A DNA stretch of 64,000 nt from Escherichia coli (GTDB taxonomy: Bacteria > Pseudomonadota > Gammaproteobacteria > Enterobacterales > Enterobacteriaceae). The notes below the pieces were generated by a model, which was not told where the DNA came from, did not search any database, and saw only the letters and a program-made list of their open reading frames with translations. Shown here piece by piece: positions 19,860 to 41,594 of this stretch (positions within the stretch are counted from its first letter, which is position 1; the number at the start of each line of letters is the position of its first letter). The stretch lies in the NCBI RefSeq assembly GCF_030013205.1, contig NZ_CP122648.1; one strand, given 5' to 3'. Both the position numbers and the translations under genes were made by a program.

Positions 19860-20005
19860 GTCAATAATAGCAGACCAACCACATCATGAGTCATTCTGAC
19901 CGACACATGCCAGAAGCAGAGGCTCCATCCCATTTTATACCTACCTTATAACACTTAGAAAAACAACATGTTAAAAATGTCTATTGGAAACAATTTTATT
20001 TCCAA

Positions 20006-20028
20006 TTGTAATGATAACCATTCTCATA
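20006..20028. promoter_or_regulatory. Fur box upstream of fecI
   Basis: TTGTAATGATAACCATTCTCATA resembles the GATAATGATAATCATTATC Fur consensus; fecIR is iron-repressed. Confidence 0.6.
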
Positions 20029-20069
20029 TTAATATGACTACGTGATAATTAACTTTTGATGCACTCCGC

Positions 20070-20587
20070 ATGTCTGACCGCGCCACTACCACAGCTTCCT
20101 TAACGTTCGAGTCGCTTTATGGCACACATCACGGCTGGTTGAAAAGCTGGCTGACGCGCAAACTCCAGTCTGCTTTTGATGCAGATGACATTGCCCAGGA
20201 CACTTTTTTGCGGGTAATGGTCAGCGAAACGCTCTCGACGATCCGCGATCCTCGCTCCTTCCTCTGCACTATCGCCAAACGCGTGATGGTGGACCTGTTT
20301 CGCCGAAACGCGCTGGAAAAAGCGTATCTGGAGATGCTGGCGCTTATGCCGGAGGGGGGAGCGTCTTCACCTGAGGAACGCGAAAGCCAACTCGAGACCC
20401 TACAACTCCTCGACAGCATGCTGGACGGGCTAAACGGCAAAACACGTGAAGCGTTTCTGCTTTCGCAACTGGATGGTCTGACATACAGCGAGATTGCGCA
20501 CAAACTCGGTGTTTCCATCAGCTCCGTGAAAAAATACGTGGCGAAAGCCGTCGAGCACTGCCTGCTGTTCCGTCTGGAGTATGGGTT

Positions 20588-20591
<4 letters not shown>
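20070..20591 (+). CDS. fecI: FecI ECF sigma factor (173 aa)
   Basis: [52 protein letters not shown]... Confidence 0.95.
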
Positions 20592-23952
<3,361 letters not shown>

Positions 23953-23960
23953 TGTGTTAA

Positions 23961-23982
23961 CGCCCGGCTTGCCGGGCTTTTA
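23961..23982 (+). terminator. Hairpin between fecA and fecB (CCCGGCTTGCCGGG followed by T-rich run), partial terminator/attenuator
   Basis: Inverted repeat at 23963-23976 directly after the fecA stop. Confidence 0.45.
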
Positions 23983-23996
23983 GCTGGAATGTGATT

Positions 23997-34744: not shown

Positions 34745-35590
34745 TTATTCATTTAAAGATTCAAGAAATGTCCAGCCTTTATGAGTAACATAATACATTT
34801 GTCCTTTTGCCCCTCTTTCAATCACAAAATCAAAGGATAACAGTTCGTTAAGTGCGCCCTCCCAACGGGCTACCTCTCTAGCCGAACTTCCACCAAAGGA
34901 TTGATTTCCCGCTTGAATATCCGTGCCACCTAAATGCCTTATCACATAAATTGTTCCGCTATCATCGACACATGCTAATTTCAGCAAACTGAGTGCATCG
35001 GCGGACAAATTACTTTCTGGCAAAGATTGACTTGTATTCGCATCAGGAGAATTGTTAATGGTAGATATAAGAGAAGACAAATAAGGGCTACTAGAAATAA
35101 TTATCGAAAGTTGCCTACGGACTTTTTCTTTGAAATCAGATAAGTCATTAAAAGACTCTATCAATCCCTTTTGCATGCACTCAGTTTTGAACAATTTAAG
35201 AGACTCATATTGTTCTCTATCAAGGCTTTCAGGGGCAACAGGCTTTGAGGAAAAGTAAATCATTGCCGGTTTTCCCGCATTCAAATGACGGTGGATTTCT
35301 TCGACTGTTCCGCTGGCCTCGTTCCCAGTCGGTGAGCCTAGACGAGTCCAAAACACACCGATTAATAAATCACAATCTACTAATAATCTTTGATTAATCA
35401 ACTCCTGAGGCCTAACTCCTAATTCGGGTGATGTATGAGTTTCCCATCCAATTGGTGTCAACATTACTTTTGAACGAGCTGAATTTATATCATTCCACTC
35501 ATGGATCATTTCACGAATGACTTGTCTCTCTTCAGCGACATCACCAGGAGAAGCAATCATTACAGGGATAACAGTTGCTGTGTAAGCCAT
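34745..35590 (-). CDS. Two-domain hypothetical protein (281 aa) with DUF4062-like N-terminal domain
   Basis: N-terminus VIPVMIASPGDVAEERQVIREMI...VDCDLLIGVFWTRLGSPTGNEASGTVEEIHRHLNAGKPAMIYFSS matches the DUF4062 pattern (S..D..EER ... CD..I.....R.G ... SGT..E ... GKP); C-terminal ~120 aa unassigned; start 13 nt after recombinase stop. Confidence 0.65.
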   Translation of the reverse strand: MAYTATVIPVMIASPGDVAEERQVIREMIHEWNDINSARSKVMLTPIGWETHTSPELGVRPQELINQRLLVDCDLLIGVFWTRLGSPTGNEASGTVEEIHRHLNAGKPAMIYFSSKPVAPESLDREQYESLKLFKTECMQKGLIESFNDLSDFKEKVRRQLSIIISSSPYLSSLISTINNSPDANTSQSLPESNLSADALSLLKLACVDDSGTIYVIRHLGGTDIQAGNQSFGGSSAREVARWEGALNELLSFDFVIERGAKGQMYYVTHKGWTFLESLNE

Positions 35591-35603
35591 AAACTCTCCA
35601 TAT

Positions 35604-36164
35604 TCAATCGGTAATAGCTGCTACAGTCGCTCTTGAAACGCCATATTGACGCGCTAACGCACTGATACTCAAACCGCTATTCTTTTTCTCTAAAATCTCT
35701 CTACGGGCTTCTGACGCGATTTTAGGAGGTCTGCCCAATTTCTTACCTTCGGCTTTTGCTCGTGATAGTCCCGCCTGAGTGCGCTCAATCAGCAGATCAC
35801 GCTCCATCTCCGCAACCGCGGCGAGCATAGATAATAGCAACTTCCCAGCGGCAGAAGTGAGATCTGTGTTACCAAGCTGGTGGACAAGAACCTTGATATT
35901 ACGGTCAGCCAGCGCCCTTACCGTTTGCAAGACGTCAATCGCATCACGCCCCAGACGATCAAGCTTCGCTACCACCAACGTTTCACCATCGCGGATTTTA
36001 TTGAGCATTTCAGAAAATGCTTTACGTTGCATTGCCGGAACCTTCCCGCTAACAACATCGGCAAACCAGTAATCAATTTGCCACCCAGCCTGCCCAAGCT
36101 CCAGCCGTTGGTTCTCAGTATCCTGCTGCGATGTCGAAACACGTCCGTAGCCAAAAGTTGCCAT
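35604..36164 (-). CDS. Small serine recombinase, resolvase/invertase family (186 aa)
   Basis: ATG at 36164 with SD GGAG; MATFGYGRVSTSQQDTENQ... (catalytic Ser region), ...VAKLDRLGRD..., C-terminal HTH LSISALARQYGVSRATV. Confidence 0.85.
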   Translation of the reverse strand: MATFGYGRVSTSQQDTENQRLELGQAGWQIDYWFADVVSGKVPAMQRKAFSEMLNKIRDGETLVVAKLDRLGRDAIDVLQTVRALADRNIKVLVHQLGNTDLTSAAGKLLLSMLAAVAEMERDLLIERTQAGLSRAKAEGKKLGRPPKIASEARREILEKKNSGLSISALARQYGVSRATVAAITD

Positions 36165-36186
36165 TGTTATCTCCCCATCTGACCCC

Positions 36187-36284
36187 TGCCAGAAAACGAG
36201 GCCAACATTAGGATGGCCTGCCAGAAAAGCCAAGGCTATTTTTCCAACAGTGTGAAAGCGTGCGATTGGGAGGTGCCAGAAAAC
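36187..36284. repeat. Three direct copies of TGCCAGAAAA(C/G) upstream of the recombinase gene (candidate res-like site / iterons)
   Basis: Copies at 36187-36197, 36219-36229 and 36274-36284, 23-120 bp upstream of the recombinase start. Confidence 0.5.
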
Positions 36285-36356
36285 GGTCGTTTGTTGGCGC
36301 TTAAAACGGATAAAGACATGTTAGGCTGAAACCATCACTTCATAAGGACAACCGAA

Positions 36357-36823
36357 ATGATTAAAGACGCGATTTTTCACCGTGCGGTCAATATCGCTAC
36401 TCGTTATCACGAGTCTGGGACGAATCAAAACCATATGCCCTTTTCATAGGGCTAAACCCTTCATACGCCGATGCTGAGAAGGATGATCGCACCTTGAGCC
36501 GCTGCATATCGTTTGCCAAAAGCAGGGGCTACGGTGGCGTATACATGGCCAACCTGTTCGCATTCGTTCACACCCAGCGACATGAAATGATGAAAGCGTC
36601 TGATCCCATTGGCAAAGATAACGATAGCCACTTGATACGTCTTGTTAGCGGTGCCGGACTGGTTGTCGCCGCATGGGGAAATGAAGGAAGACACCTCAAA
36701 CGCTCAACGACCGTCCGACAGCTATTGCCAGAGAGCACAATGTGCTTCGTCTTAAACGCTACAGGTGAGCCGAAGCACCCTTTGTATATGAAAAACGACA
36801 GTGTTCTCATACCTTTAGGTTAA
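36357..36823 (+). pseudogene. DUF1643-family gene disrupted by a +1 frameshift in a T5 run
   Basis: ATG at 36357 reads MIKDAIFHRAVN... to a stop after 30 codons; the -1 frame continues ...SPCGQYRYSLSRVWDESKPYALFIGLNPSYADAEKDDRTLSRCISFAKSRGYGGVYMANLFAF... (DUF1643 hallmark); frames join if one T of 36373-36377 is removed. Confidence 0.65.
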
Positions 36824-36832
36824 CATCGATAA

Positions 36833-36855
36833 CTGCGTTCAGAATATGAACGCAG
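36833..36855. terminator. Perfect 9-bp-stem palindrome CTGCGTTCA-GAATA-TGAACGCAG after the DUF1643 gene (terminator or operator)
   Basis: Inverted repeat directly downstream of the stop at 36823. Confidence 0.4.
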
Positions 36856-37828
36856 CCATATGATATATATGACTTTTCTTTAAAATGATGGTGTGCTAGC
36901 TTCTCTCCTGACACCTACCTCATGCGGTAAACCGGTCCGGGTAGGTGGAGATCACCGCTGTTTAGCGGAAGACGTCAGGATGGGAACTCTGCGTAACGTT
37001 GATTGTGGTAGGTAGGGCGCGCAAGCGTTTGATGCAGCCAAGCAGAGGGTGAAAGTAGCTATCGGCGGATTCTTGAGTAGCTTCTTTTGCGCATAATGCA
37101 TCTTTCAAGAAAGGTCGTCACACCACGAGGAAGACTTGATCTTCATCTGGCAAGGGGAACCGAGCAACCTACAGGCTATCTTCTCAGATGGCCTTATGGT
37201 TGATATGTCCGGCTTCCCCCCCGAGGAAGGGTTTACATCTTAAAGAACAAGTTATGTTTTAACATTTTTAACAATTACACTTCTCTGCTGTTTGGTGTCT
37301 TATGGCGTTGCCGTCAAAAGTAAACCTGCCGTTTTTACCTCTCCTGCGTAACAACCAAATACGAACCAGAAGCTGCTAACGTTCAACGTGTTCGCGGTGT
37401 AAATGCAGCCAGATAAGTTGGGAGCGAAAAAGTGGATGCCCTAGGTTTGGAAGCGCCCCTCTCAGGCATAGCGTCCGAAAATTTCCACGGCGGCAGGCTT
37501 ATCCTTATAGAGCCAAACAGACTCAAAAGTTAAGAAGCGCGGTAAAGCTTAAAGCTCGCCCAGATTTCTCATTGATTGCTCGAACTCCGCTACGCTTGTT
37601 TCAACTGGCTTCGCCAGTCACTCTATGAGAGCGCCGCGAATTCTGCACCATGATTTCGACTACCTTCTTTAAAACACTCGCCAGAGAGCCTTACAGCGCG
37701 TTTGAACCGCATATCGCAGCTTTTGCTTACGGATGACTGTCTGATTAGCAGTAGCTTCATGGCCCAGTCCGGTTTACTTTATTGCTATCAACAAGGGAGC
37801 CGTCCAGAGGCGACGCGGAGATAATGCT

Positions 37829-38161
37829 TTGAGAACCGTCGAGATACTGCAATACACCTTACGCAAAGGCAGCGGTGCCGCTTTTCACGCCATTATGCAG
37901 GAAATCAGTGTTCCCCTACACCAACGCCACGGGATCGATGTTGTTTCGTTTGGTAACTCTCTGCATGACCCGGACTGCTATTACCTGATTCGCGCCTTTG
38001 TCAGCCCTAAAAGCATGACTACGGTTCTCGACGCTTTTTACGCAAGCGATGACTGGCGCAGCGGCCCGCGCGAAGACATCATTGGCAACATAGAGGCCAG
38101 CATTAAAACAGTGATAAATCTACCATCAGAAAGCGTAGAAGGGCTGCGGGTGCAATCGTAG
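37829..38161 (+). CDS. NIPSNAP/Dabb-like small protein (110 aa, TTG start inferred)
   Basis: ...VEILQYTLRKGSGAAFHAIMQEISVPLHQRHGIDVVSFGNSLHDPDCYYLIRAFVS... resembles NIPSNAP-type ~100-aa proteins; no in-frame ATG upstream. Confidence 0.45.
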   Translation: MRTVEILQYTLRKGSGAAFHAIMQEISVPLHQRHGIDVVSFGNSLHDPDCYYLIRAFVSPKSMTTVLDAFYASDDWRSGPREDIIGNIEASIKTVINLPSESVEGLRVQS

Positions 38162-38293
38162 GTCATCAAGTTTCACCAAACGTGTTTTGAGCGTCTCCAA
38201 ATTCAGCACTATGAAATCCACCACCCTTAATAAAAAACGCGCCAGGAAGCGTCCCAGCGCATTCAAGCATCACTCAACTGAATAGTAACTGAT

Positions 38294-40204
38294 TCAACCT
38301 GTTTGTTTGCCACGCTTTCTTCGCAACGCATCTCTGACAGCATCCAGCCCGTCAGGAATGTTGAATTCCGCTATATCAGGTAACGAAAAATCAATTTTCT
38401 CCACGACTTCAATCATATGAATTGGTTTGAGGTCTTTGCTATATCGCACTTCCGTTTCAGTTTCGCCGCGCACATGCCCAAGTAGCTGCGCTCGTAATTC
38501 TGAGCTAACGCCCTTCTCCTTGAGCAAAGTCGAAACTGAGTGGCGAAAAGAATGGAAAGATTTGCTTCTGTTCCTCTCGAGTTTCAACCGCCCCGCAAGC
38601 AACGATTCATTGAACCATGCGGAAACTGGCCTACCATAGCCTTTTGTTTTATGTGGTTTAAGCTCCGGGAAGAGACGGGTATACCCTGCATCTTTTAAGG
38701 CGTTCACGTAGTCGATGAAACCGAGACTAATCAGCTTTGAATGGAGCGGAATCTTGCGGCGAGCATTAGCATTTTTGAGTTTCTTTCCGCTTTCATTATC
38801 GCTTTCAAGGTTCAAATAATAGACGCCGTCGTCTGCCAGAACATCACTCAGCAGTAACTGAGCGATTTCATTAACTCGCGCCCCCGTCATCAAGCCCAGC
38901 AAAGGTGCCCAATAGTTAAACGGGCAATATTGATGGAATCGCCCTTGCGCATTGCGTTCAACAGTTCCAGCCTCAAACCACGGTAACGAAAAAATCGCTT
39001 TAATTTCATGCGGTTCAAATATGTCAGTGTGATCCTGATCTCGCTCATCTTTATCATCGGATGGAAAAAAGTTTTCGCATGGCGATTTCAGTAGCTTACC
39101 GTCAGCAACAGCCCACTTCATTGCACCATAAATGCCGTTGATATACTTCCTAACGGATTCCTCAGTCATCAATTTATCGCCGCATTCTGCCGCTTTGGCG
39201 ATTAACTGATCCAGCGTTTTCACTCCATATTTAGCTTTGACTAAATTACGGTTTGCTGGGATCGTGCGCAGTTTGCTCTCATAAGCCCGGAGGAAATCGC
39301 GATCAAAATCTTCCAACTGAATGTCACCCATCGCTTCGATCATAAAGCTGAAATAGTTACGGATATCACTTATAGCCGACTCCGATACCTTGCCCTTGCG
39401 CCGATGCTTTAGATATTCAGAGCATAACCACGACAGATTCTTAGTGTAATACTTTCGATTAACATACTCGTTATCGATAGTAGGGGCAGGAGCGGCAAGA
39501 GGCACGGTAGGATGAACACTAGCGACTGGAGGCGTGGTCTTAGCCAGCCAATCAAGCCTTAGGCTTTCTGCATGGACTTTATTGATCAAAAGCGTATCGG
39601 GTTTAATTACCGGCCAACCGGAGGTGAAAAACCAACCGCCTTTAGCGTCGCTTCCGGCAGTTTTGAACACCGAAGCTTCTGAATAACCGTCGCTAATAAT
39701 GTTACGTAAATGTGCTGGTTGCGCAGTGAGTTGCAGATAGCCTTTAGCAACCCCCTCGATACCCTTCTCTTCGCCATAATTAAGAACGTAACTGCCATCA
39801 AGCGGGTCTAGCTCAGCCTCAGAGAGCGCTGCAACATAAAAGCCAGCCTGCCCCGTCGCCAGCCAGAATACGGGCAGATTACGGTTCATCACCGCCTGTA
39901 TTAATTGCGCAACAGGCAACTCAACTGACTGAGCAAAGTTAGAAAGCGAGATCATACCCTCACCAGCAAGCAGCGGGGCGCAGTCACTTAAAGTTCGATA
40001 ATCCAATTGTTCATACTCTTGTAAGGTCTGATACCAGACCGCCAACAGGAGCGCGGACTTCTGCTTTGCTTCATGAAGATCGTGAGTGCCTGTTGAAGTG
40101 TGAATCTCACACTGTCCTGCGTATCGACGAAAACGTTGGGGAATGCTAATGCGGACAACATAAATGCCGCTGGTTCGACGATAGAGTTTATATCGCTGAG
40201 ACAT
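38294..40204 (-). CDS. Large tyrosine recombinase / integrase (636 aa from first ATG; 650 aa from TTG at 40246)
   Basis: C-terminal catalytic region ...GARVNEIAQLLLSDV...HSFRHSVSTLL...LLGH...EVRYSKD (R, H-x-x-R, H, Y); start adjacent to the 3' end of tRNA-Leu, same orientation. Confidence 0.85.
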   Translation of the reverse strand: MSQRYKLYRRTSGIYVVRISIPQRFRRYAGQCEIHTSTGTHDLHEAKQKSALLLAVWYQTLQEYEQLDYRTLSDCAPLLAGEGMISLSNFAQSVELPVAQLIQAVMNRNLPVFWLATGQAGFYVAALSEAELDPLDGSYVLNYGEEKGIEGVAKGYLQLTAQPAHLRNIISDGYSEASVFKTAGSDAKGGWFFTSGWPVIKPDTLLINKVHAESLRLDWLAKTTPPVASVHPTVPLAAPAPTIDNEYVNRKYYTKNLSWLCSEYLKHRRKGKVSESAISDIRNYFSFMIEAMGDIQLEDFDRDFLRAYESKLRTIPANRNLVKAKYGVKTLDQLIAKAAECGDKLMTEESVRKYINGIYGAMKWAVADGKLLKSPCENFFPSDDKDERDQDHTDIFEPHEIKAIFSLPWFEAGTVERNAQGRFHQYCPFNYWAPLLGLMTGARVNEIAQLLLSDVLADDGVYYLNLESDNESGKKLKNANARRKIPLHSKLISLGFIDYVNALKDAGYTRLFPELKPHKTKGYGRPVSAWFNESLLAGRLKLERNRSKSFHSFRHSVSTLLKEKGVSSELRAQLLGHVRGETETEVRYSKDLKPIHMIEVVEKIDFSLPDIAEFNIPDGLDAVRDALRRKRGKQTG

Positions 40205-40294
40205 CGCCTCGTATACCCTTTTGTAAGAGGGGCTACGCGATTTCAAGCAAAATTATGGATTAAATTGTTTTAAAACAACGACTTAGATAAGACT

Positions 40295-40379
40295 TGGTGC
40301 CGAAGGCCGGACTCGAACCGGCACGTATTTCTACGGTTGATTTTGAATCAACTGCGTCTACCGATTTCGCCACTTCGGC
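40295..40379 (-). tRNA. leuX: tRNA-Leu (CAA anticodon), leuX
   Basis: Reverse complement reads GCCGAAGTGGCGAAATCGGTAGACGCAGTTGATTCAAAATCAACCGTAGAAATACGTGCCGGTTCGAGTCCGGCCTTCGGCACCA with long variable arm and CCA end. Confidence 0.95.
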
Positions 40380-40574
40380 ACTGAAGAGGTATGCGGAAAA
40401 CGTTGTGGATTATACCTGTCGCACGCCACCATGCAAGCGCCAGCTTGCACCCACCTCGCTAAGTGCTGAAATTTTCAGCATTACACTCAGCGATATGTAA
40501 CCTTTGTCACACTCCAGGCACCCCGCCCTGCCATGCTCTACACTTCCCAAACAACACCAGAGAAGGACCCAAAA

Positions 40575-41594
40575 ATGTCGATGATAAAAAGCTATGCCGC
40601 AAAAGAAGCGGGCGGCGAACTGGAAGTTTATGAGTACGATCCCGGTGAGCTGAAGCCACAAGATGTTGAAGTGCAGGTGGATTACTGCGGGATTTGTCAT
40701 TCCGATCTGTCGATGATCGATAACGAATGGGGATTTTCACAATATCCGCTGGTTGCCGGGCATGAGGTGATTGGGCGCGTGGTGGCACTCGGGAGCGCCG
40801 CGCAGGATAAAGGTTTGCAGGTCGGTCAGCGTGTCGGGATTGGCTGGACGGCGCGTAGCTGTGGTCACTGCGACACCTGTATTAGCGGTAATCAGATCAA
40901 CTGCGAGCAAGGTGCGGTGCCGACGATTATGAATCGCGGTGGCTTTGCCGAGAAGTTGCGTGCGGACTGGCAATGGGTGATTCCACTGCCAGAAAATATT
41001 GATATCGAGTCCGCCGGGCCGCTGTTGTGCGGCGGTATCACGGTCTTTAAACCACTGTTGATGCACCATATCACTGCTACCAGCCGCGTTGGGGTAATTG
41101 GTATTGGCGGGCTGGGGCATATCGCTATAAAACTTCTGCACGCAATGGGATGCGAGGTGACGGCCTTTAGTTCTAATCCGGCGAAAGAGCAGGAAGTACT
41201 GGCGATGGGTACCGATAAAGTGGTGAATAGCCGCGATCCGCAGGCACTGAAAGCCCTGTCGGGGCAGTTTGATCTCATTATCAATACTGTGAACGTCAGC
41301 CTCGACTGGCAGCCTTATTTTGAGGCGCTGACCTATGGCGGTAATTTCCATACGGTCGGTGCGGTTCTCACGCCGCTGTCTGTTCCGGCCTTTACGTTAA
41401 TTGCGGGCGACCGCAGCATCTCTGGTTCTGCTACCGGCACGCCTTATGAGCTGCGTAAGCTGATGCGTTTTGCCGCCCGCAGCAAGGTTGCGCCGACCAC
41501 CGAACTGTTCCCGATGTCGAAAATTAACGACGCCATCCAGCATGTACGCGATGGTAAAGCGCGCTACCGCGTGGTCCTGAAAGCCGACTTCTGA
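40575..41594 (+). CDS. ahr: Ahr (YjgB) NADPH-dependent aldehyde reductase, Zn-dependent alcohol dehydrogenase family (339 aa)
   Basis: ATG at 40575: [53 protein letters not shown]...; GHEVIG and GIGGLGH motifs. Confidence 0.93.

Follow-up and report, generated by a model that had tools for sequence, protein, structure and literature searches.

The 64,000-nucleotide (nt) stretch of Escherichia coli DNA analyzed here (contig NZ_CP122648.1 of assembly GCF_030013205.1; hereafter the window) carries an integrative element of about 7.4 kb at a tRNA-Leu gene. Within it, between a frameshifted DUF1643 gene and a NIPSNAP gene, lies roughly a kilobase (36856-37828) for which RefSeq gives no annotation. 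Comparison with related sequences indicates that this kilobase is a mosaic forming the non-coding centre of the element, and that it includes a module of approximately 330 nt, designated b1, whose 3' limit is the point where conservation drops and not a mapped end. Nowhere else in the element backbone is conservation as high as in b1. On balance, and with some caution, we favor the interpretation that it is a new non-coding RNA module, transcribed from the part of the element concerned with replication or maintenance, and not a decayed gene; that it is transcribed and acts as RNA, and that it belongs to that part rather than to the cargo, is what we infer from the comparisons described below. 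The coordinates of the features are collected in Table 1.

Homologues of the segment were collected from complete E. coli genomes, plasmids, one genome per species, metagenomes, and contigs carrying relatives of the element's recombinase, giving 24 distinct versions (alignments A5, A6 and A9). Nissle 1917, ATCC 25922, 042 and many other E. coli strains share the window segment at 100% identity in their leuX region; of the 5426 complete E. coli genomes, about 595 have b1, including Nissle 1917, O157:H7 and ATCC 25922, as well as in Citrobacter, Enterobacter and Yersinia, and is without annotation in the genomes that carry it. In 20 versions out of the other 22, the b1 body of about 260 nt keeps 95.1–99.6% identity to the window; of the remaining two, L042 falls to 91%, with a 17-nt tandem duplication, and L048 is a contig that ends inside the body. 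Over the same 22 versions, identity ranges over 65–100% in the promoter, 65–100% in the spacer and 66–91% in block A, and all three drop to 65–85% in versions whose body stays at 95–99%. The element's own genes also diverge faster: between Citrobacter and the window, b1 is 97% identical, the DUF1643 gene 88% and the recombinase gene 80%. By these alignments, b1 changes at less than one-tenth the rate of its flanks and of the element's genes, and is under unusually strong constraint from purifying selection. The divergent lineages have their own shared substitutions in b1 along with their own flanks, so the similarity reflects slow evolution and not a recent sweep. An ORF gap (ORF, open reading frame) and the fold of a single sequence are by themselves a weak finding, and it is the comparison with related sequences that makes the case; conservation, which could not be seen in the preliminary description of the segment from one sequence, is the feature that lies clearly beyond chance. 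Two further observations concern the body: the 17-nt tandem duplication is found in two metagenome versions (L042:5190-5230), and in one O157-like strain IS1203 is inserted at the equivalent of window position 37229, the end of the invariant body (L011:3690-5001).

The conserved unit begins at about 36831 regardless of the gene upstream, which may be the DUF1643 gene or one of several unrelated ORFs of 162–562 amino acids (aa). Its left edge is a perfect palindrome that is nearly invariant in 23 versions, with the outer C-G pair replaced by G-C in seven of them, and that is common to sister elements with a Rep-like gene in place of b1 (A7). A predicted promoter follows. In sigma-70 promoters of the extended -10 type (TGnTATAAT-like), the TG at -15/-14, T-12, A-11 and T-7 matter most. 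The promoter regions of 23 b1 versions and three Rep-type versions are only 65–70% identical overall; within them, the TG and TA of the extended -10 sequence are invariant and the final T is present in at least 90% of the b1 versions, and all of these bases are kept in the three Rep-type versions. Such invariance of the functional -10 bases within a diverged region marks selection for promoter function, and by this evidence of conservation the sequence qualifies as a putative sigma-70 extended -10 element. Its position places the predicted start of plus-strand transcription at about 36909-36911, with the centre of the palindrome some 65 nt upstream. The promoter is probably regulated; the palindrome in front of it could be an operator or, alternatively, a site of nicking or cruciform formation.

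The preliminary description had proposed three nested helices at the start of the segment, and all three pairs of complementary sequences are present where it placed them. The 86-nt fold is moderately better than shuffled sequences (z about -2.7 on both strands). Covariation was assessed with 18 distinct sequences (A9), 500 shuffles and slid controls. The structure as first proposed is paired in 94.1% of cells and has a covariation score of 0.129, compared with a shuffle mean of 0.079 (reached by 0/500 shuffles) and 0.027–0.046 for slid controls; a structure with the first helix shifted by 2 nt plus a local hairpin is paired in 98.0% and scores 0.121 (shuffle mean 0.087, 0/500, slid controls 0.015–0.055). 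Two of the three proposed helices gain support, ACCTACC/GGTAGGT (hairpin H2) and CCGCU/AGCGG (H3). In H2, 95% of cells are paired and three pairs are altered on both sides, C-G to U-A twice and C-G to A-U in Yersinia, and the loop region GCGGUAAACCGGUCCGG is nearly invariant. The shifted register shows U-A to A-U in three sequences of another lineage; both registers are possible because the CCUACCU/GGUAGGUGG sequence is repeated. Four G-C pairs of H3 are invariant or G-U, and its closing pair is U-A in nine versions, G-U in three, A-U in one and unpaired in five. The third proposal, an outer helix of CCTGAC with GTCAGG, is not supported: the 5' arm, located after the -10 element and before the predicted start of transcription, varies without compensation, and GUCAGG pairs locally with 36988-37000 in every sequence. 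This local hairpin (H4/5) is paired in 100% of cells, with G-U changed to A-U in eight versions and C-G to U-G in three. In a set of six sequences, eight changes are compatible with the plus-strand structure and two disruptive (2 and 7 for the minus strand), and this balance, together with the many G-U pairs, favors the plus strand. The 5' hairpins are kept by compensatory changes in a manner that fits the plus strand. RNA structure is proposed for this 5' domain, since beyond about 37000 variation is too low for a fold test; of the structured RNA first suggested for the whole kilobase, the non-coding RNA option is favored for about 36910-37235, with structural support from the 5' hairpins and none from the remainder of the segment.

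A different arrangement is found in tRNA-Gly islands and an IncHI1B plasmid: here an ORF of 338 aa comes after the same palindrome and promoter, and block A, again the same, comes next. Homology of these Rep-type elements to the b1 type ends about 10 nt past the -10 element, and at this one position b1 and the 338-aa gene exclude each other. Copies of the gene are found at L002:3811-4827, L004:3826-4839 and L008:3822-4838, with relatives at L069-L071. The protein is not detected by Pfam, PHROG or NCBIfam models. Its AlphaFold model, a confident one (pLDDT, the predicted local distance difference test, 85; pTM, the predicted template modeling score, 0.82), matches, in Foldseek searches of the PDB, RepDE (4cwe, 4cwc) and RepSTK1 (4cij) with E values of 4e-6 to 3e-5 and probability 1.0, and an invariant Tyr and the acidic residues are kept in the family alignment; by these results the protein has a Rep_trans fold, that of rolling-circle initiators. 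In Pseudomonas and Burkholderia, the Rep-like gene is part of a three-gene operon that is divergent from a resolvase gene and lies beside a DUF6538 integrase gene. The 338-aa family spans Enterobacterales, Pseudomonas and Burkholderia, and always adjoins a resolvase and a DUF6538 integrase. Among the 5426 E. coli genomes, 40 have the Rep-like gene, compared with about 595 that have b1. In one Yersinia locus (L062:6666-7358), the b1 slot before block A is filled by an unrelated, ORF-free sequence of about 560 nt in which the motif CCAGAGAAGAGGTT recurs; it has no Rfam match and may be a second unclassified non-coding module.

The alternatives to a non-coding RNA divide into those that make b1 coding, or formerly coding, and those that give its sequence another role. 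The lack of ORFs of 60 codons or more was borne out, the longest wholly internal ORF being 49 aa, and such a gap is by itself only mildly unusual: 15% of dinucleotide shuffles also lack an ORF of at least 60 aa, and 2.9% lack any ORF above 49 aa. A decayed protein gene, or neutral junk left after deletions, is a reading that could draw on the truly 3' remnant of a 69-aa gene at 37549-37590, on the frameshift in the adjoining DUF1643 gene of this strain, and on sister elements having a gene at this position. The heavily decayed gene of the preliminary description is thus right for this minus-strand remnant and wrong for the hairpin region. Within b1, tblastn with the slot proteins (the 338-aa, 306-aa and 190-aa proteins and DUF4468) found nothing, six-frame translations matched no Pfam or PHROG family, and no version has a long ORF; b1 is also far more conserved than functional neighbor genes, the opposite of decay. 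We regard decay as very improbable, and for 36910-37235 the comparisons largely refute it. A type I toxin-antitoxin system, in which a small hydrophobic peptide is paired with an overlapping antisense RNA, would also seem ORF-free at a 60-codon cut-off, and its sequence would be held fixed by the overlapping constraints. The 49-aa ORF (36952-37101, minus strand) has a hydrophobic centre and basic ends, and the constraint seems to be on sequence and not on one fold; against this, 6 of the 20 aligned versions have a stop in the ORF at codon 7, the same substitution being carried by Yersinia L060, and Rfam gives no match to known type I systems. Other conserved ORFs in b1 are absent beyond what sequence invariance gives trivially. 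A small protein or type I toxin in b1 is rejected accordingly; as a type I system b1 is extremely improbable, the only candidate ORF being refuted by its alignment. One-nt indels in the body are polymorphic, with all four combinations seen, and as there is also no conserved ORF, coding is ruled out; by these alignments b1 is non-coding.

A more serious competitor, though still unlikely, is that b1 acts as DNA, as an origin in cis, in line with the origin-like region of the preliminary description: the palindrome would be a double-strand origin or nick site, b1 a single-strand origin or oriT-like sequence, and a Rep or relaxase acting in trans would replicate or mobilize the Rep-less element in single-stranded form. 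The palindrome that adjoins b1 can form a hairpin, has a co-varying outer pair and is also found upstream of the Rep_trans-like gene in sister elements; 260 nt of body are invariant in sequence while RNA pairing there is untestable or unsupported; and the hairpins are strand-specific, as in single-strand origins, with an overall fold at least as good on the minus strand (z -2.7 vs -1.7). Several observations speak against such an origin. The helper would usually be absent, given the rarity of the Rep-like gene and the absence of Nissle and O157:H7 from the listed Rep-positive genomes. Since Rep-type elements do without b1, it cannot serve that Rep as its cis site. No similarity to b1 was found in 72,556 plasmids (distant mode) or 50,697 phages, so there is no obvious helper origin that it mimics, and the invariant -10 bases of b1 lineages argue for selected transcription into b1. 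In another, quite improbable reading, b1 itself would be functionless, and the promoter would either make a long leader for cargo such as NIPSNAP or provide a convergent antisense transcript damping the operon of the integrase and 69-aa genes. In keeping with this, no terminator was found between the promoter and NIPSNAP, many versions have plus-strand cargo cassettes after block A, the integrase operon runs towards the b1 unit from the other side and a weak boxA-like motif lies just past b1; yet a body that is 95–99% invariant while spacer and block A diverge would go unexplained, Rep-type elements arrive at the same block A without b1, and b1 is not merely a leader for downstream cargo because L029, L040 and L056 have no plus-strand gene after it.

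Under the favored interpretation, that of a transcribed RNA module, the likeliest mechanism, offered tentatively and by analogy, is that b1 specifies an untranslated RNA for Rep-independent replication of the excised circle. The conserved extended -10 promoter, probably regulated, would read the plus strand into b1, and the RNA would serve as a pre-primer or origin-activating transcript of the circle without an element-encoded Rep; overlapping constraints on RNA and DNA would account for the invariance that base-pairing alone leaves unexplained. The next option within the RNA interpretation would be a trans-acting regulatory RNA of the element. A bolder form, which we consider doubtful, is that b1 represents a new class of element-encoded RNA replacing the rolling-circle Rep in a tRNA-integrating island, with Rep-independent, RNA-driven replication or copy control of the excised circle, and is the fixed hinge of two cassette slots in a hitherto undescribed cargo-exchange platform with a serine recombinase. 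The analogy is with ColE1/pMB1 plasmids, where RNA II is an untranslated, structured pre-primer whose promoter lies several hundred bases upstream of the origin, and RNA I is its antisense regulator, made from a separate promoter located about 110 nt past the point where the pre-primer starts. Three 5' stem-loops of the pre-primer vary and co-vary in ways that keep pairing, and the longer body is conserved by overlapping RNA and DNA constraints. The b1 region is likewise ORF-free over several hundred bases, with a predicted promoter at one end, variable but paired 5' stem-loops and a conserved body. Replication of ColE1 depends on RNase H and DNA polymerase I and needs no initiator encoded by the element, and b1 stands where sister elements encode one.

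Weighing against this interpretation are a number of points. Primary-sequence invariance this strong is no less characteristic of DNA sites than of RNA. Relatives of the element in Pseudomonas and Pantoea have neither b1 nor the Rep-like gene, so the module is dispensable for the family and could be another cargo. The metagenome versions were found by an exact 21-mer from the b1 body, which is an ascertainment caveat. A simple consensus promoter scan did not call the predicted b1 promoter, the -35 sequence being weak, and no plus-strand intrinsic terminator was found in 36300-38300, leaving no defined 3' end. The single-sequence minimum free energy structure of the b1 body is contradicted by the positions of polymorphisms, of which 27 break pairs, 16 are compatible and 21 are unpaired, and in the RNAalifold helices of the body, singleton changes that disrupt a pair outnumber those that preserve one. 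The likeness to ColE1 also has its limits: b1 has no sequence or covariance-model similarity to such systems (plasmids; RNAI RF00106) and the arrangement of G-run and C-run differs. An antisense promoter of the RNA I type was not called on the minus strand of b1 by the consensus scan of 36300-38300, a weak test, nor did reading by eye of minus-strand 36985-37140, likewise a weak test, reveal a promoter with 9/12 matches. Lastly, b1 is part of an integrative element and not a plasmid, and no origin-proximal features were identified.

Other known systems share parts of this arrangement. The satellite phage P4 integrates at leuX and has a leader and the CI immunity RNA behind a regulated promoter of its replication region. 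The present element is similarly a small tRNA-Leu-integrating element with an untranslated region behind a replication-region promoter giving a functional RNA in place of proteins or ahead of them, as predicted for b1; it differs in its 650-aa DUF6538 integrase, in having no replication genes after b1, and in the length of b1, about five times that of CI RNA, and the C4/IsrK-type Rfam models have no match in b1. The resemblance of b1 to ColE1 RNA II and to the P4 leader and CI RNA is one of logic only. With Rep_trans rolling-circle replicons (pT181/pC221, RepC/RepD), the points of contact are the predicted Rep_trans fold encoded by sister elements at the b1 position, the hairpin-forming palindrome directly upstream and the strand-specific hairpins; the differences are that b1 elements have no Rep, Rep-type elements have no b1, no nick site was identified, and the conserved promoter points to transcription over a single-stranded DNA function. 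A search of 35500-41000 with Rfam 15 (4227 models, E≤1) matched only tRNA-Leu, and at E≤10 the region 36820-37830 gave only two chance snoRNA (small nucleolar RNA) matches of 16 and 14 bits, both outside b1, which thus belongs to no Rfam family.

Several further identities were considered and set aside. A mimic of a phage cos or pac site, or of a plasmid oriT or origin, is rejected, there being no b1 match in phages, plasmids or viral contigs. An exact 22-mer match in L031 and L047 is a chance one inside an unrelated, high-GC coding region. Esr41, a known small RNA of an enterohaemorrhagic E. coli island, maps to OI-43 instead (PMC8565820). An invertible segment suggested by a 15-nt inverted repeat (36927/37763) is at chance level in the list of repeats, and the complementary 9-mer upstream of NIPSNAP is not retained in other NIPSNAP cassettes. 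Iteron-like GGTAGG/CCTACC repeats, present in four copies, are unconvincing (family-wise p about 0.06). For a guide RNA or bridge-RNA-like function, b1 and five junction windows share only 7-mers, which 61% of shuffles equal.

Table 1. Positions of b1 and associated features in the window (64,000 nt).
Feature	Position	Strand	Basis or remark
Whole integrative element	32976-40379		Bounded by repeat of tRNA-Leu 3' end and by tRNA-Leu(CAA)
Helix-turn-helix (HTH) regulator (backbone)	33485-34042	-	
Serine recombinase (backbone)	35604-36170	-	
Perfect palindrome, CTGCGTTCA-GAATA-TGAACGCAG	36833-36855		Left edge of conserved unit
Predicted promoter region	36861-36902	+	Conservation
Upstream promoter part, TGATATATA	36861-36869	+	After palindrome
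-35-like TTTTCT (T-tract)	36874-36879	+	17-nt spacer to -10 hexamer
Putative extended -10, TGcTAGCTT (TGnTAnnnT)	36894-36902	+	Key bases conserved
Module b1, predicted non-coding RNA	~36910-37235	+	Start inferred from -10; ~330 nt
Hairpin H2, ACCUACC/GGUAGGU	36913-36948 (36913-19 with 36940-46)	+	Compensatory changes
H2, alternative register (shifted by 2)	36915-27 with 36937-48	+	Fits about equally
Hairpin H3, CCGCU-GUUU-AGCGG	36955-36968	+	Four pairs kept, variable loop
Hairpin H4/5, GACGUCAGG with UCUG (36988-36991) and ACGUU (36996-37000)	36971-37000	+	
Invariant b1 body	36973-37235	+	Identity across versions
Spacer b2, AU-rich, poorly structured	37236-37351	+	T-run at 37331-37335
Block A, conserved non-coding	37352-37593		Common to Rep-type sister elements, tRNA-Gly islands and plasmids
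Gene remnant, last 13 codons and stop (...AEFEQSMRNLGEL)	37549-37590	-	69-71-aa gene, phrog_27283, function unknown
Block B, conserved	37597-37704		In sister elements between integrase stop codon and 69-aa gene
Upstream region travelling with NIPSNAP cassette	37705-37828	+	Homologues only where NIPSNAP is present (L007, L012, L043)
650-aa integrase, DUF6538 N-terminus (backbone)	38294-40246	-	
tRNA-Leu(CAA)	40295-40379	-	Element boundary

Downstream of b1, the spacer b2 folds no better than shuffled sequences in four versions (z about 0) and has no terminator hairpin. Just past b1 is a weak boxA-like sequence, TTTTTAACAATT (37265-37276), with about 9/12 matches to the boxA of rrn operons; divergent versions have a copy with different mismatches. 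It could, on this weak resemblance, protect a long untranslated transcript from Rho. Block B, like block A, is also found in tRNA-Gly islands and on plasmids, and elsewhere cargo cassettes lie between the two blocks, inserted after 37509 or after 37593. In the window, the blocks abut, 3 nt apart, forming an 'empty' cargo site. The minus-strand remnant at the end of block A belongs to a gene that is intact downstream of int in L002, L003, L017, L029 and L040. In five loci, a 229-nt piece at 37593|37597 completes an ORF of 69–71 aa, and the window is without those 229 nt, the 5' two-thirds of the gene; this comparison identifies 37549-37590 as a genuine gene remnant, that is, a pseudogene. The conserved gene (MATYRQIAD...TCWIAHVK...; L040:10658-10867 and L002:5186-5401, both on the minus strand) is present after the integrase gene in many elements and has been deleted in the lineage of the window, and its product may be a recombination directionality or regulatory factor.

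A second cargo slot lies to the left, between the recombinase gene and b1. There, homology stops at 36296-36301 (...AAAACGGTCGTTTGTTGGC|) and returns at 36831 in at least ten loci (L009, L029, L034, L040, L043, L045, L049, L056, L058, L060 and L062). In L009 and L060 the slot holds a NUDIX cassette flanked by a 12-nt repeat of 36287-36298. Borders this sharp suggest that cassettes are exchanged site-specifically, a task that may fall to the serine recombinase, and speak against random indels. Plain homologous recombination within the conserved flanks may also account for the exchange. Like integrons, these surroundings combine conserved blocks, sharp junctions (36298/36831 and 37509 or 37593/37597), a recombinase gene and a fixed promoter; unlike integrons, they have no attC-like sites and no IntI, the recombinase being a resolvase-type serine enzyme. 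On a 6.7-kb ColE1-type plasmid of Klebsiella (L006), fragments of blocks A and B (553-612 and 2056-2123) flank a two-gene cassette, and the presence of these fragments on both sides indicates that the cassette moved together with the island junctions. Cassettes of this type, encoding a 190-aa protein and a DUF4468 protein, are found on small Rop-encoding plasmids.

The element is bounded on the left by a repeat of the tRNA-Leu 3' end at 32976-33003 (28 nt, 26/28 matching, 0 expected by chance). From sequence comparison, it belongs to a family distributed in Enterobacterales and Pseudomonas, with a backbone of an XRE-type regulator, a small serine recombinase and the 650-aa DUF6538 integrase, and with defense-type cargo housed in the two slots. 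To the left of the recombinase gene, the window has genes for a DUF4062 protein (34745-35590, minus strand) and a membrane protein (34133-34684, plus strand; phrog_20749); other versions have, there or in the right slot, a Shedu-domain protein (PF14082 SduA_C), AAA_13, HNH and AIPR proteins, a reverse transcriptase or a helicase. From this varied cargo, the family is seen as a carrier of defense-type genes. The intergenic region between the recombinase and DUF1643 genes includes three copies of TGCCAGAAAA (36185-36285), a block kept throughout the element family and a candidate res or operator site. The 'leuX island' as a whole is a tandem array, in which the element (32976-40379) adjoins the tRNA gene and separate material occupies 20000-32975; beyond the element are an AbiJ-like gene, insertion sequence (IS) elements, the fec operon and a CP4-like segment with Ag43 and cbtA/yeeU. 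No paper was found that mentions DUF6538 or describes this element family, and DUF1643 is met mainly in papers on staphylococcal SCC elements and Stenotrophomonas phage genomes.

From Escherichia to Yersinia, the approximately 330-nt b1 is about 98% identical while the promoter, flanks and element genes diverge by 15–35%, and it has gone unannotated despite its presence in very well-studied strains such as Nissle 1917, ATCC 25922, 042 and O157:H7. For the annotation of islands, the comparison is useful in defining a family of elements whose two cargo slots have sharp limits, and a Rep_trans-like protein family that can be recognized by structure while invisible to profiles. Were b1 only a DNA site or a leader, the gain would be smaller, a corrected annotation of a recurrent intergenic kilobase. 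Its location at the position of a Rep-like gene provides a testable idea on how small 'defense islands' persist or multiply after excision, and if an RNA does replace the Rep, about one-tenth of E. coli strains, Nissle 1917 and O157:H7 among them, would carry an unrecognized RNA replicon module in what is regarded as a 'genomic island'.

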